Translations under genes and position numbers: made by a program
Notes under the pieces: model-generated
Told to the model about the DNA's origin: nothing
Seen by the model: the letters and a program-made list of their open reading frames with translations, nothing else
The model's database searches: none
Part shown: one piece after another, positions 1 through 17,122 of the stretch
Layout: each line of letters begins with the position of its first letter
Numbering within the stretch: the stretch's first letter is position 1
Virus genome (UHGV): UHGV-0339891
Length of the DNA: 17,122 nucleotides
Source: a virus
Strand: one strand, 5' to 3'

Positions 1-147
1 TGATGCTGAATTTCTGAATCCCATAGCATCTGGCTGTTCTCCGGTACTGGTTACAGCTATAAAGCGGTCATGAAAACAAACCTTGAACCCGTTGCGCTTA
101 AGGAACTTGTACGCAATCTGACAGAGTTCGCGGTGTGTTAACGCCAT
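1..147 (-). CDS. Hypothetical prophage protein, partial (C-terminus runs off the window start)
   Basis: Minus-strand ATG at 147..145 preceded by GGAGGG (plus 152-157); reads MALTHRELCQIAYKFLKRNGFKV... open to position 1; start lies 2 nt downstream of the upstream gene's stop. Confidence 0.4.
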   Translation of the reverse strand, partial: MALTHRELCQIAYKFLKRNGFKVCFHDRFIAVTSTGEQPDAMGFRNSAS

Positions 148-148
148 A

Positions 149-541
149 TCACCCTCCTTTGATGCGAATGCCTGTAGCGCGGATTGCATCGATGACTTCA
201 GAAACTTTGTATGCCATTACCGTTTGGTAATCCTCGTGAAAATCTGTTCGATGAAGCATGCTGCTACGTTCTGGGAGCGATATTTCCCGCGCTTCCAGTT
301 CAGCAATGCGCTTCTCTGCGACTTCCAGCGCATTTACCAGATCATCAACGGTTCCAGCCGCTTGGCGTGCGTAATCTGTAATTGCCAGCTCGCATTCAAT
401 TTCAGTTCCGTTTTCGTTGGTGTGGCAAATAGCAAAGTAATCGGAGTCGATTTCGTTATCAGCCAAACTCCTAAGCGTGTCGGCAACCAGCACTCCGTTT
501 TCAATCAGCATCTCTGTTGCGCGTTTGTCGATGTTGCTCAT
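149..541 (-). CDS. Hypothetical Ea22-region protein (130 aa), shares MSNID N-terminus and AEKRIAELE segment with the neighbouring gene
   Basis: ORF track 149..541; ATG start; start overlaps the stop of the upstream gene (538..541). Confidence 0.55.
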   Translation of the reverse strand: MSNIDKRATEMLIENGVLVADTLRSLADNEIDSDYFAICHTNENGTEIECELAITDYARQAAGTVDDLVNALEVAEKRIAELEAREISLPERSSMLHRTDFHEDYQTVMAYKVSEVIDAIRATGIRIKGG

Positions 542-1401
542 TGCGCGGCCTCCTGGCGGTCTATGCGTTCAATTTCGGCCAGAATAAGTGCGCCAGCTTT
601 CACAAGGTCACGACGCGGCCCAGATTGCTTCCACCAATCAGGAGCCCACGGCCAATGCGCTGGCGTTGAGAAGCCTTGATTGTGTGCGCTAATCGCATAG
701 CAAGCTGCAGCATCTGCCAGCTCACCGTTTTGATAGGCGTCGTCATGCTCCGGTGTCCAACCCTCAACAGCCCTCTGCCGCTGACGTTCTGATATCACAT
801 CCAGAAGTGCAGGATTGAACGCCAGCACCTCCAGTTCAGCAATCCGCTTCTCTGCGGCTTCCAGCTTCTCGCGCATATCGTCAACGTACTCGACCAGAGA
901 TCCGCCAGCAGGAATTTCGCATTCCTCGACCAGTTGGAAGTAGATATCAGCTGCGGCCCGTGTGTTGCTATGCCTAGCGTCGCCCATCTCACCTTCACGA
1001 AGAGCATCGCGTTCGGCGGTAAGATTGGCTATTTTGCTGTCTTTTCCTTCCAGCTCAACGCGAAGCCTCCCAACCGTAAGCGCAATATCCTCGTTCTCCT
1101 GGTCGCGGCGTTTGATGTATTGCTGGTTTCTTTCCCGTTCATCCAGTAATGCCAGCACGGTAGCCGGACTGGCTGCGGCGATGAATTCAGCATTGGCCTG
1201 CTGTTCCATTTGGAAATCTTCATCGAAACCGCTTTCAGGATGCGCTCCTTCAATTCTGCAAATAGGAATATATCCAGCAACTTCACGATGAATTAGTGCA
1301 TCATCACCATCAAATCGGCCCTTTCCATATTCGAGCGACCACTCACCACACGTTGCTTTTTCTGCCTTTTCACGCAGTGCCTGATAGTCAATATTGCTCA
1401 C
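538..1401 (-). CDS. Ea22-like prophage protein (287 aa), coiled-coil centre with a Trp/His-rich C-terminal domain
   Basis: ORF track; N-terminus [21 protein letters not shown] typical of lambdoid Ea22-like proteins (recalled, not searched); apparent GTG start at 1401 overlapping the upstream stop. Confidence 0.55.
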   Translation of the reverse strand: MSNIDYQALREKAEKATCGEWSLEYGKGRFDGDDALIHREVAGYIPICRIEGAHPESGFDEDFQMEQQANAEFIAAASPATVLALLDERERNQQYIKRRDQENEDIALTVGRLRVELEGKDSKIANLTAERDALREGEMGDARHSNTRAAADIYFQLVEECEIPAGGSLVEYVDDMREKLEAAEKRIAELEVLAFNPALLDVISERQRQRAVEGWTPEHDDAYQNGELADAAACYAISAHNQGFSTPAHWPWAPDWWKQSGPRRDLVKAGALILAEIERIDRQEAAQ

Positions 1402-5865: not shown

Positions 5866-5984
5866 ATATCACCTCAAATAAGTGGTTTGCTGCCTAATTT
5901 AATTTTCTGGCGACCAACACAAGTCACACCCATTTCACTGCGTGGCTTGCGGTAGTAAATACGGTTATGTTTACGCTCGACTTC

Positions 5985-6173
5985 TTATGCCTTCTTGCAG
6001 CGAAGGCTTCCGAGTGATGCTGCTTTATCTGCTCTGACGCAACCAGAGAGCTTTAGCGCAATTTTTCGCGCCAGTCGCTGCTCTTGCATTGCCTGTTCAC
6101 GTTGAGCCTGTCTGCGTGCTCTGCGGCGGTTTCTGGCATTATCGTCAGCCAGATATGTAATAACTACTGTCAT
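5985..6173 (-). CDS. N: N-like transcription antiterminator, short (62 aa) with an arginine-rich motif
   Basis: ATG with GGAGG 5 nt upstream; N-terminal motif NARNRRRARRQAQREQ; first gene downstream of pL and nutL. Confidence 0.5.
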   Translation of the reverse strand: MTVVITYLADDNARNRRRARRQAQREQAMQEQRLARKIALKLSGCVRADKAASLGSLRCKKA

Positions 6174-8183: not shown

Positions 8184-8462
8184 ATGCAACTTACAAGTAC
8201 TCGCAAGAAAGCGAATGCAATTACAAGCAACATCCTGAATCGAATTGCTGTACGTGGTCAGCGAAAGGTTGCCGACGCGTTAGGGATTAATGAATCGCAA
8301 ATTTCGCGATGGAAAGATAGCTTCATCCCAAAAATGGGAATGCTTCTGGCTGTTCTTGAATGGGGTGTTGAAGACGAGGAGTTGGCGGAACTGGCTAAGC
8401 AAGTAGCCAGAATGCTGACAAAAGAAAAAGCCCCGAAGAACGGCGAATTCTTCGAGGCCTGA
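8184..8462 (+). CDS. cII: cII-like transcriptional activator (92 aa)
   Basis: ATG 8184 with AAGGAAA upstream; SQISRWKDSFIPKMGMLLAVLEWGV matches lambda CII SQISRWKRDWIPKFSMLLAVLEWGV (recalled). Confidence 0.75.
   Translation: MQLTSTRKKANAITSNILNRIAVRGQRKVADALGINESQISRWKDSFIPKMGMLLAVLEWGVEDEELAELAKQVARMLTKEKAPKNGEFFEA
8421..8458 (-). terminator. Minus-strand intrinsic terminator inside the 3' end of cII (OOP-like antisense RNA terminator)
   Basis: Minus-strand hairpin CCUCGAAGAA-UUCGCCG-UUCUUCGGGG followed by CUUUUUCUUUU; no T-run on the plus strand. Confidence 0.45.
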
Positions 8463-8644
8463 TGTAGAAAGACTGGATCAATCCACAGGAGTAATTATGA
8501 CAAAACGTCGTAAGAAATACCAGGAAAAAGAAGAGATTCGACACCCTGATTCACCTGAGGGATTAGTGGTAGCCGCAGCAAATAACAGGGTGTTCGCAGA
8601 GCGCCTTGTTGGTGTTTACAGACTAGCCAAAGCAGGAGTGAAAC

Positions 8645-9557
8645 ATGGGCGTCGTTAAGTTAGCTGATTACAGGCATAACCCTGTACAACATCAGGAGGC
8701 ATCCAGTATGGGGTATGTCTCTATACACCGCCAGTTTATGGACAGCAGTCTCTATAAGGACTCTCAGGCAGTACATCTTTGGCTTCACTTAATCCTCAAG
8801 GCTAATCACGAATCTACTGTCGTCAATACGGATATCGGTCCGATAACTGTTGATCGCGGTCAGATGATAACTGGACGCCCGTCGCTGGTCAGAGAAACAT
8901 TCATCCCCGACAACAAAGTTCGGAGCTTATTACGGACTTTTGAGTCGAAGGGGATGCTTAATATTTGCTCGATGGGGAAGAAATTTAGCCTGTTTACAAT
9001 CGTTAAATATGACGATTTTCAGGCAAAAAATTGTCCAACGGTTGTCCAACGGTTGTCCAACGGTTGTCCAACGGTTGTCCAACGCAAACACCAGTAATGG
9101 CGCGGCTCTCAGCGGAGATTGTCCAACGGTTGTCCAACGGTTGTCCATAAACAATAATATAAATAATATCTCTAATACTGACGTATTAGAGAGTGCCACA
9201 GCAGACAAAAAGTCTGACAAGAAAAAACCTTCCGTCAGCTGTCAGGATGTTGTCGATGCTTACCACGAAATCCTTCCTGAAGCGCCAAGAATCCGCGCAC
9301 TGAATGACAAGCGTAAAAACCAGATCCGAACGTTCTGGCGCAAAGCCGGAGTGATAACCCGCCAGCTTGACGGGCATGGGTTCACGATGCAGGACTGGAG
9401 AAATTATTTGAGCTACGTAGGCGAAAATTGCCGATGGATGTTCGAAGAACGCCCAAACCATCAACGCGGAACCGTCTGGCACAAAAAGGGATTTGACTTC
9501 CTGCTTAACGACAATACCTACCTGAAAGTTCGTGAGGGTGAACACGATGACCGATAA
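8645..9557 (+). pseudogene. O-like replication initiator, reading frame split inside its iteron array
   Basis: N-terminal frame 8645..9097 (alternative start 8707) and C-terminal frame 8940..9557 are offset by +1 and overlap across the 11-bp repeats; C-terminal stop overlaps the helicase start. Confidence 0.55.
9031..9150. repeat. Origin of replication: TTGTCCAACGG iterons followed by an AT-rich tract
   Basis: Five tandem 11-bp copies at 9031-9085, a 33-bp spacer, about three further copies at 9119-9150, then an AT-rich tract at about 9151-9180; embedded in the O-like gene as ori is in lambda O. Confidence 0.7.
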
Positions 9558-10983
9558 TTTTTATGCGCCGCCCCATAGCATCGAGGCAGAGCAGGCGGTT
9601 ATTGGTGGATTGCTTCTGGATGATGACAGCAGTGAGCGCGTCCGGAAAGTTCTGGCGATGCTGAAGCCTGATTCATTTTACAGCCGACCACACAAAATCC
9701 TTTTCGAAGAAATAACCAGAATGCACCGGGAGCAAAAGCCAGTAGATGGGCTGACGCTTTTCGATGAACTGGAGCGCAAATCGTTAACGGCGTCTGTTGG
9801 CGGTTTTGCTTATATCGCTGAGATCGCAAAGAACACGCCAAGCGCAGCAAACATCGTTGCCTATGCAATGCAGGTTCGTGAAACCGCAATGGAACGCTAC
9901 GCCATCAACCGCATGACTGAAGCGACGGAATTGCTCTATTCCCGCAACGGAATGACTGCAACGCAGAAGTACGAAGCTATTCAGGCGATTTTCACGCAAC
10001 TGACAGACCATGCAAAAACCGGATCGCGTAGCGGCCTTCGCTCATTTGGCGAGGTCATGGAAGACTGGGTTAGCGACCTTGAGAAGCGATTTGACCCGTC
10101 AGGCGAACAACGAGGAATGAGCACAGGGATCCCATCGCTGGACAGGATGCTGTCACCGAAAGGTCTGGTGAAAGGCTCTCTGTTTGTCATTGGCGCTCGC
10201 CCTAAGATGGGGAAAACGACGCTATACAGCCAGATGGCAATCAACTGCGCAGTTCATGAGAAAAAGCCCGCTCTGATGTTCAGCCTTGAAATGCCAGGTG
10301 ACCAGATACTGGAAAAACTGGTAGGGCAGAAGTCAGGTGTTAACCCAAATATTTTTTACCTTCCGGCGACAAATGACGCCGATGACGGCTATCAGGGTGA
10401 TTACGATGGTGACTTCACCAGGGCGATCGAAACAGCCAATCGCTTGAGTGAAATCGACCTGCTTTACATCGACGACACGCCGGGATTATCTCTGGCTCAA
10501 ATCGTCAGCGAAAGCCGTCGAATCAAGCGAGAAAAAGGATGTGTTGGCATGATTCTGGTCGATTACCTGACACTAATGACCGCTGAAAAGGCCGATCGTA
10601 ACGACCTTGCTTACGGCATGATCACCAAAGGACTGAAGAACCTTGCCAAAGAGCTTGATTGCGTTGTTGTGCTTCTGACGCAGCTTAACCGCGCACTGGA
10701 AAGCCGAACCAATAAACGCCCATTACCAAGTGACTCACGAGATACAGGGCAGATTGAACAGGATTGCGATTATTGGGTGGGGATCCATCGTGAAGGTGCT
10801 TTTGATGACAGTGTTCCACCTGGTGAAACCGAACTAATCCTTCGTCTCAATCGTCATGGCAATACCGGCACGGTGTATTGCATTCAGGCAAATGGCGCTA
10901 TTTATGACACAGACCAACAGTCTGCTGAAATGCGCCGCCGTGAACGCGAGGAACCGCAGTCCAAGAAGAAAGGAGGATTCTGA
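9547..10983 (+). CDS. DnaB-family replicative DNA helicase (P22 gene 12 type)
   Basis: ORF track 9532..10983 (GTG); ATG 9547 with GAGGGTG upstream; DnaB-like N-terminus HSIEAEQAVIGGLLLD and Walker A GARPKMGKTT. Confidence 0.85.
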   Translation: MTDNFYAPPHSIEAEQAVIGGLLLDDDSSERVRKVLAMLKPDSFYSRPHKILFEEITRMHREQKPVDGLTLFDELERKSLTASVGGFAYIAEIAKNTPSAANIVAYAMQVRETAMERYAINRMTEATELLYSRNGMTATQKYEAIQAIFTQLTDHAKTGSRSGLRSFGEVMEDWVSDLEKRFDPSGEQRGMSTGIPSLDRMLSPKGLVKGSLFVIGARPKMGKTTLYSQMAINCAVHEKKPALMFSLEMPGDQILEKLVGQKSGVNPNIFYLPATNDADDGYQGDYDGDFTRAIETANRLSEIDLLYIDDTPGLSLAQIVSESRRIKREKGCVGMILVDYLTLMTAEKADRNDLAYGMITKGLKNLAKELDCVVVLLTQLNRALESRTNKRPLPSDSRDTGQIEQDCDYWVGIHREGAFDDSVPPGETELILRLNRHGNTGTVYCIQANGAIYDTDQQSAEMRRREREEPQSKKKGGF

Positions 10984-11282: not shown

Positions 11283-11603
11283 ATGGCCGAATCAAGAAAG
11301 CAGTTTGAAGAAAGTTGGTTGCGACGTGGAGGCGAATCTTCAGACCTTATCCGTTACCCTGAAAATCACCATGAAATTGGCAGTGGTGATATTGGTGGTC
11401 AATACGTGATGGACGATGTTCAAGGCCACTGGTAAACGTGGCAGGCATCGCGAGCAGCTATTGAAATAACCGCGCCAAAGTTTATCGACAGCAGAGAAGC
11501 ATTAGCCAAAGGGTTTACTGTTGATTATTCCAATGGCTTCGGTGATGCAATGGATGCTTATGAGGAAAACATCCGCGCTGCTGGAGTCAAAGTGAAGGAG
11601 TGA
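11283..11603 (+). pseudogene. nin-region ORF interrupted by an in-frame TAA (would be 106 aa)
   Basis: ATG 11283 with GAGGGT upstream; 50 codons, TAA at 11433-11435, then 55 further sense codons in the same frame to TGA 11601-11603. Confidence 0.4.
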
Positions 11604-16836: not shown

Positions 16837-17010
16837 ATGACTGAACAAGAAATGCCGAGATACCAGTGCCACAAAAAAGTTCGCGCCCTGAAGATTGGCT
16901 CTATAGAACATAAGCCAAACCCAGATCAGTCTGGTAAGACTGGCTCTTCTAGTTATGGGGCAATTATTCATCCGGATGATAAGGGTGATGCTGCCAACTT
17001 ACTGATTTAG
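16837..17010 (+). pseudogene. Hypothetical gene truncated by IS1 insertion
   Basis: ATG 16837 with GGAGGG 6 nt upstream; the frame runs into the IS1 terminal repeat at 16984 and stops at an IS1-encoded TAG (17008-17010). Confidence 0.4.
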
Positions 17011-17122
17011 TGTATGATGGTGTTTTTGAGGTGCTCCAGTGGCTTCTGTTTCTATCAGCTGTCCCTCCTGTTCAGCTACTGACGGGGTGGTGCGTAACGG
17101 CAAAAGCACCGCCGGACATCAG
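16984..17122 (+). mobile_element. IS1 left end (terminal inverted repeat and start of insA), continues beyond the window
   Basis: GGTGATGCTGCCAACTTACTGATTTAGTGTATGATGGTGTTTTTGAGGTGCTCCAGTGGCTTCTG... matches the canonical IS1 left end from memory. Confidence 0.8.
17039..17122 (+). CDS. insA: IS1 InsA, N-terminal part (partial)
   Basis: GTG start; translation [27 protein letters not shown] matches IS1 InsA (recalled). Confidence 0.75.

Follow-up and report, generated by a model that had tools for sequence, protein, structure and literature searches.

Why does the replication initiator gene of a lambdoid prophage appear as two ORFs that exchange reading frames within the repeats of its own origin? 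The question arises from a window of 17,122 nucleotides, the whole stretch of viral DNA analysed here (UHGV-0339891). The window covers the early genes of a lambdoid prophage of the P22-like/HK620-like kind, with the gene order cI, cro, cII, small orf, O-like initiator, DnaB-like helicase, nin genes, Q, and lysis genes.

The split gene, its family, and its neighbours

The N-terminal ORF of the initiator (8645..9097, plus strand) starts with ATG, encodes 150 residues, and is truncated by a premature TAA codon at positions 9095-9097. It is composed of a putative origin-binding domain and a repeat-encoded linker, to which the repeats contribute 20 residues. The ORF of the C-terminal domain (8940..9557, plus strand) has a length of 205 residues counted from TTG, and its homologous coding part extends from the repeat array to position 9557. 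The starts of the two ORFs are 295 nucleotides apart, which places the second in frame +1 relative to the first. An earlier note, made from the letters of this DNA, had described two ORFs at these coordinates, offset by +1 across 11-bp iterons, and the description is borne out. The initiator gene spans 913 nucleotides, which equals 891 + 22 and is thus 1 modulo 3. Instead of one continuous ORF of about 296 residues, it contains two, with the TAA codon terminating the first.

Comparisons at the level of sequence confirm that a single O-like replication initiator is divided between the two ORFs, the first holding its N-terminal half and the second its C-terminal half. PHROG 345 ('replication initiation O-like') is matched by the N-terminal ORF at positions 1-136 (E 2e-25), by the C-terminal ORF at positions 166-292 (E 1.5e-53), and by gp43 of phage Sf6 from end to end (1-292, E 6e-85). 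The initiator belongs to the family of phage L gene 18, Sf6 gp43, and HK620 O (PHROG 345), in which the origin is located inside the gene. The N-terminal domain resembles PHROG families labelled DnaD-like. Alignment to lambda O by hhalign is limited to the C-terminal part (probability 97%, E 7e-11, columns 190-296 versus 178-298). Neither the N-terminal ORF nor Sf6 gp43 has a Pfam hit at E <= 0.01, and the PF04492 (Phage_rep_O) domain was not detected in them. Searches of Pfam, NCBIfam, and PDB sequences with the initiator gave no significant match, and Rfam has no match anywhere in the window. The AlphaFold2 model of the N-terminal ORF, calculated from an alignment of 20 sequences, has a mean pLDDT of 54, which is not good enough for searching with the fold.

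The replication-region DNA of the window is 96-97% identical to that of the isolated phages Sf6, HK620, HK75, HK106, HK542, HK629, HK633, mEpX2, mEp234, mEp506, IME10, and Huey, and many E. coli prophages are equally close. Gene 43 of Sf6 is a single ORF of 296 residues, recorded as encoding a putative replication initiation protein and bearing a putative rep_origin feature over its repeats. It is flanked by a cII homologue and a 53-aa orf on one side, and by a DnaB-like helicase on the other. The initiator of the window occupies the same place in the early right operon, between cII with the small orf and the DnaB-like helicase. The small conserved ORF (8497..8658, plus strand, 53 aa) is a homologue of Sf6 gene 42 and overlaps the initiator start. 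The gene of the DnaB-like replicative helicase (9547..10983, plus strand), whose start overlaps the initiator end, is intact and encodes 478 residues, as in relatives. An exact-product look-up of this helicase returned no match.

Layout of the repeats and their coding frames

The repeats are arranged in two clusters. Cluster I (9031..9085, plus strand) is formed by five 11-bp units, four copies of TTGTCCAACGG followed by TTGTCCAACGC, in which the fifth unit ends in C. Directly before it lies a run of six A (9025..9030, plus strand), which the earlier note had placed at these positions; the run is unchanged here, and its shortening from A6 to A5 is a frameshift in another lineage. A spacer of 33 bp (9086..9118, plus strand) separates cluster I from cluster II (9119..9147, plus strand), which has 2.6 units with three TGTCCA cores, the canonical number. 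Tandem Repeats Finder reports 4.9 copies of TTGTCCAACGG at 9031-9084 and 2.6 copies at 9119-9147, each with a 100% match. The 11-mer is present in six exact copies and in one copy with a single mismatch, compared to a chance expectation of about 0.008 exact copies in 17 kb on both strands. The window contains eight cores, at positions 9032, 9043, 9054, 9065, 9076, 9120, 9131, and 9142, and the spacer leaves all of them at multiples of 11 bp. The repeats are adjoined by an A+T-rich stretch (9148..9168, plus strand; 82% A+T over 9148-9185) and a perfect palindrome (9169..9192) with 10-bp arms, TCTCTAATAC tgac GTATTAGAGA.

Five divergent homologues from five species records, with 73-95% identity, retain TGTCCA cores at the canonical spacing of 11, 11, 44, 11, and 11 bp, even though their peptide and the bases between the cores are different. 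With the units of a cluster read in three frames, this conservation of the cores is best explained by selection on DNA. The conservation fits putative protein-binding sites positioned on one face of the helix, and the repeats may be the binding sites of the initiator. The array unit holds an imperfect dyad, GTTG-tc-CAAC, and the junctions between units read CAAC-g-GTTG; the array from 9031 to 9147 is thus an alternation of GTTG and CAAC half-sites, and the register of the cores is continued across the 33-bp spacer. Divergent homologues have a palindrome with 9-11-bp arms at the same position past the A+T-rich stretch, each of a different sequence (L006, 3503-3526; L007, 3510-3531; L008, 3452-3475). 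The palindrome following the A+T-rich stretch therefore looks like a conserved origin element inside the coding sequence.

Because the 11-bp repeat length has no factor in common with 3, every frame encodes permutations of the peptide CPTVVQRLSNG. The array unit lacks stop codons in all forward frames. The earlier note had recognized that both ORFs stay open and encode this peptide; all three forward frames are open, and they encode its circular permutations. Frames 0 and +1 are jointly open for 158 nucleotides (8940-9097). The note had further proposed that a length change of 2 modulo 3 would restore a single protein, and each of its three options did so in silico. The gain of one unit resulted in one ORF of 307 residues, the loss of one A from the A6 run in one of 303 residues, and the removal of two units in one of 296 residues, which differs from Sf6 gp43 only by the substitutions R35S and A155V. 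The former corresponds to AGG to AGT at position 8747, in initiator codon 35, inside the otherwise highly conserved motif FMDSRLYKDSQAVHLW. The N-terminal domain encoded by an intact gene from IMG/VR (L011) is identical to that of the window, and R35S is therefore presumably shared with L011 rather than specific to the broken allele.

Repeat number in relatives and other frameshift alleles

In an alignment with Sf6, E. coli 55989, and GPT24-01, the sole length difference is the 22 bp gained by the window, where cluster I has five units instead of three. Which two of the five are extra is indistinguishable. A count of repeats against intact O homologues, proposed in the earlier note, thus yields three units for cluster I of the relatives. 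Since the relatives carry three units, the removal of two among the options considered above corresponds to the ancestral state. In the canonical state, one ORF of 296 residues contains six TGTCCAAC cores at intervals of 11, 11, 44, 11, and 11 bp, compared to eight cores in a 5+3 arrangement in the window.

The repeat number was compared in 86 loci, comprising 3 annotated records, 3 species-representative genomes, 79 IMG/VR contigs, and the window. An ORF of 296 or 298 residues together with the canonical 105-bp array span is present in 80 of them. One locus has an in-frame 66-bp duplication of 'cluster + spacer' (318 aa), and one has an in-frame 66-bp deletion (274 aa). The out-of-frame loci are L043 (-11 bp, cluster II), L080 (-55 bp), L074 (+1 nucleotide), L012, in which the frameshift sits elsewhere in the gene, and the window. 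In each of the 26 matching phage records, the array has its canonical span and is covered by one O CDS. Among 145 complete E. coli genomes with the array, the best 40 rows and 60 evenly spread ones were canonical or differed by +66 or -66 bp in frame. An exact scan of IMG/VR identified 93 contigs with the three-unit cluster, and a cluster I of four or more units was found in none of the IMG/VR contigs and in none of 241 million metagenome records scanned in the same exact manner. A look-up of the exact 150-aa product in the gene-position index of public assemblies returned no match.

The earlier note had also considered that homologues might naturally encode two separate proteins at this boundary. 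The phage records and the inspected E. coli rows have a single ORF. Where split versions occur elsewhere, they are frameshift alleles in their own right and do not represent a natural two-protein homologue. PHROG 24933, with 127 positions covering only the C-terminal domain, was considered as a sign of a natural two-gene arrangement and rejected as the norm, because the isolated phages inspected have one CDS.

The length of the array varies in and out of frame. Three units and the 33-bp spacer constitute a 66-bp module, the duplication or deletion of which keeps the frame, and these +66 and -66 bp changes were the only frame-keeping variants seen among the relatives inspected. In-frame variants occur in E. 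coli GPT24-01 (L002, 1546-2502), in L036, and in E. coli IGC_RcoliRes_1.1 (H210). The initiators with a duplicated or deleted module have 318 or 274 residues and 9 or 3 cores, and there is no sign that they are non-functional.

The out-of-frame alleles include changes in both clusters and in the A-run. Cluster I is reduced to one or two units in P0005 (153 aa) and P0006 (139 aa). Cluster II has one unit fewer (-11 bp) in P0002 (159 aa), L196, and L043, and one unit more (+11 bp) in L198 and L199. The A6 run right at the start of the array is shortened to A5 in a heavily deleted Sf6-like remnant with an acyltransferase gene (L195, L197, and L200-L202). The sequences of this remnant are run-derived (Logan) contigs from several sequencing runs, in which the N-terminus of the helicase is fused to DUF2560 and followed by gp16-like, Mnt-like, tailspike, acyltransferase, and integrase genes. 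C-terminal products of 138 and 160 residues led to other frameshift alleles, not to the +22-bp one. The other public split alleles thus affect the same gene, at the same arrays or next to them, but none has the five-unit cluster of the window. Judged from these alleles, the arrays and the adjoining A-run are recurrent sites of apparent inactivation. The sources of the out-of-frame alleles at the array are viral contigs and draft or metagenome assemblies, in part visibly deleted prophage remnants, whereas the isolated phages and complete genomes inspected have only in-frame array variants. In phage ECP1 (L183, NC_049926.1, 79-907), O is annotated as two CDSs, 79..333 and 326..907. The division is caused by one extra C about 70 nucleotides upstream of the array; this C may be a sequencing error, or the phage may tolerate the split.

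Cause of the split and state of the prophage

Three further genes of the window are damaged. The gene of the N-like antiterminator (5877-6173, minus strand) has GAA changed to TAA at codon 63 of 99 (E63), with the stop at 5985-5987. The protein has an arginine-rich N-terminus and belongs to PHROG 271 ('anti-termination protein N-like'), and its copy in a prophage of E. coli MS20674 is intact. The truncated 62-aa product occurs in 17 inspected contigs, most of which contain gene calls cut at contig ends. A real stop after 62 residues was found in one further run, SRR12212784 (L186); the prophage there has another immunity module. The neighbouring 152-aa protein, from the ORF ending at 1398 and counted from its first internal Met, matches only mosaics with other replication modules. 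A conserved ORF of the nin region (11283-11603, 106 aa) has CAA changed to TAA (Q51) at 11433-11435, where its closest full-length homologues have Q at codon 51 (14 of 31 matches). The left end of an IS1 element (16984-17122, GGTGATGCTGCCAACTTACTGAT...) disrupts a small ORF (16837-17010) that directly precedes the position of the packaging genes in relatives, and the window ends inside IS1. The ochre stop at 11433 and the IS1 insertion, now located from 16984, were cited in the earlier note as signs of a cryptic prophage, and the nonsense codon in the antiterminator, which it did not mention, is further evidence of the same. About 30 other genes of the window align full length to reference proteins and contain no frameshift.

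We consider it likely that the split is a real mutation in a decaying prophage, in which the 22 bp gained by cluster I divide and inactivate the initiator. Slipped-strand mispairing or unequal exchange would have added two 11-bp units and increased their number from three to five; we infer that slippage was the mechanism of the gain. Since 22 is 1 modulo 3, translation from the ATG at 8645 leaves the true frame in the repeats and stops at the TAA codon. The stop would separate the putative origin-binding domain from the C-terminal lambda-O-like domain. The latter has no convincing start of its own, as the ATG at 9009 and the TTG codons at 9042, 9075, and 9141 all lack a Shine-Dalgarno sequence. 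Translational coupling through TAATG at 9095-9099 was rejected, because the ATG at 9097-9099 is in the third frame and opens a peptide of only 16 residues. Once repaired in silico, the gene hardly differs from a functional one, and it is otherwise free of decay, which indicates that the event was recent.

The five units could alternatively be an artefact of assembly or sequencing, in which case the true genome would have three (or six) units and a continuous O gene, with the repeat count resolved incorrectly. Short-k de Bruijn assemblers can miscount tandem arrays, and the five-unit allele is unique in every collection searched and stands without independent confirmation. Many database entries for the initiator are labelled 'partial', being cut at contig ends inside the array, and the 1-nucleotide insertion that splits O in the ECP1 record is possibly an error. 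However, the array of 55 bp is shorter than an ordinary read, and the insertion amounts to exactly two units. The other lesions of the window are three, independent, and of different kinds, as in real decay, and the absence of frameshifts from about 30 other genes makes a real slippage mutation likelier than an assembly error. We therefore regard an artefact as unlikely.

It is highly improbable that the split is tolerated or even useful, with the 150-aa fragment still binding the repeats and acting as a replication inhibitor or exclusion factor against phages of the same origin type, or with the array serving as a reversible on/off switch. Such a role would agree with the intact N-terminal domain and its normal start, with the several independent out-of-frame alleles in public assemblies, and with the in-frame variants of 274 and 318 residues, which indicate that the linker tolerates changes in length. 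Iterons of lambda cloned together with oop inhibit phages of the same replicon (PMC3349717). As 11 is not a multiple of 3, slippage by a single unit would turn the initiator off or on, and a switch would have left its mark in the out-of-frame alleles that arose repeatedly and independently at both clusters. In its most specific form, in which the origin repeats are a built-in reversible mutational switch and the off state leaves an origin-binding fragment that protects the lysogen, we give the proposal hardly any credence. A rapidly switching locus would present the opposite of what was observed: 80 of the 86 loci compared, at least 93%, are canonical, and IMG/VR contains 93 canonical contigs against none with four or more units. 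Neither the isolated phages nor the complete E. coli genomes inspected include an array that is out of frame, the N-like antiterminator needed for expression of the operon carries a nonsense codon, and there is no sign of selection for the truncated form. The near-uniform canonical state argues against a role in switching or exclusion, and such a role is unsupported.

The chance that a full-length initiator is made across the two frames by programmed recoding, whether through ribosomal frameshifting or through slippage in transcription, is close to negligible. The 158 nucleotides shared by the open frames would permit it, and an A_AAA_AAT heptamer is located just before the array. However, the homologues are read in a single frame, so that the two-frame layout is not conserved. 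A shift of -1 at the heptamer was rejected because it has the wrong direction: it would lead into a frame that stops at about 9147, whereas a shift of +1 is required. A run of six A is too short for efficient transcriptional slippage.

Under the preferred explanation, a real gain of two units, the initiator would be deprived of its C-terminal domain. It is through the C-terminal part of O that lambda recruits its helicase complex. An initiator that lacks this domain should not fire the origin, which would make the prophage replication-defective. It is most likely that the split initiator is non-functional and that the prophage is unable to start its own replication. The operon would be poorly expressed anyway, since the N-like antiterminator is truncated too. 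Damage to replication, antitermination, and the packaging end makes the prophage very probably defective, and it should be annotated as such. The split gene is a defective allele of a known replicon type, produced most likely by an ordinary inactivating mutation, and is an ordinary pseudogene. Annotation should join the two ORFs under a single label, that of a disrupted O-like (gene 18-type) initiator pseudogene.

The closest counterparts of the replicon are gene 18 of phages L and ST64T, gene 43 of Sf6, and O of HK620, which contain six 11-bp TGTCCAACGG repeats inside the gene. The six 11-bp TGTCCAACGGA repeats in gene 18 of phage L have been described as 'likely the origin' (PMC8022706). The window shares with these phages the initiator family, repeat unit, A+T-rich stretch, palindrome, and neighbouring genes, but it has eight cores (5+3) instead of six (3+3), and its frame is broken and the gene split. 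In the Stx phages 933W and P27, six lambda-type iterons instead of four add 13 in-frame residues to O (PMC7466680). Repeat number inside the O gene thus varies there as well, altering the length of the protein linker (PMC7466680), but the gain in the Stx phages is in frame and the initiator functional, whereas the gain in the window is out of frame. The addition made by the present case is modest: in the 11-bp family, slippage by a single unit breaks the frame, only the +66 and -66 bp variants among those seen keep it, and there are several independent out-of-frame alleles. More generally, a coding sequence that houses an origin of 11-bp units is a hotspot for frameshifts.

The resemblance to lambda O and ori-lambda is in the position of the origin, which lies in the middle of the gene and encodes the linker between domains, and in the homologous C-terminal domain. 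The ori-lambda layout of repeats, A+T-rich region, and palindrome has the same overall plan as that of the window. The window differs from lambda in its 11-bp head-to-tail units, as opposed to four iterons of about 19 bp, in an N-terminal domain without a PF04492 hit, and in a downstream partner that is a DnaB-type helicase rather than the lambda P loader. A strong terminator-like hairpin with a T-run (8428-8460, minus strand) is located at the end of the cII homologue, in a position corresponding to that of the lambda oop terminator.
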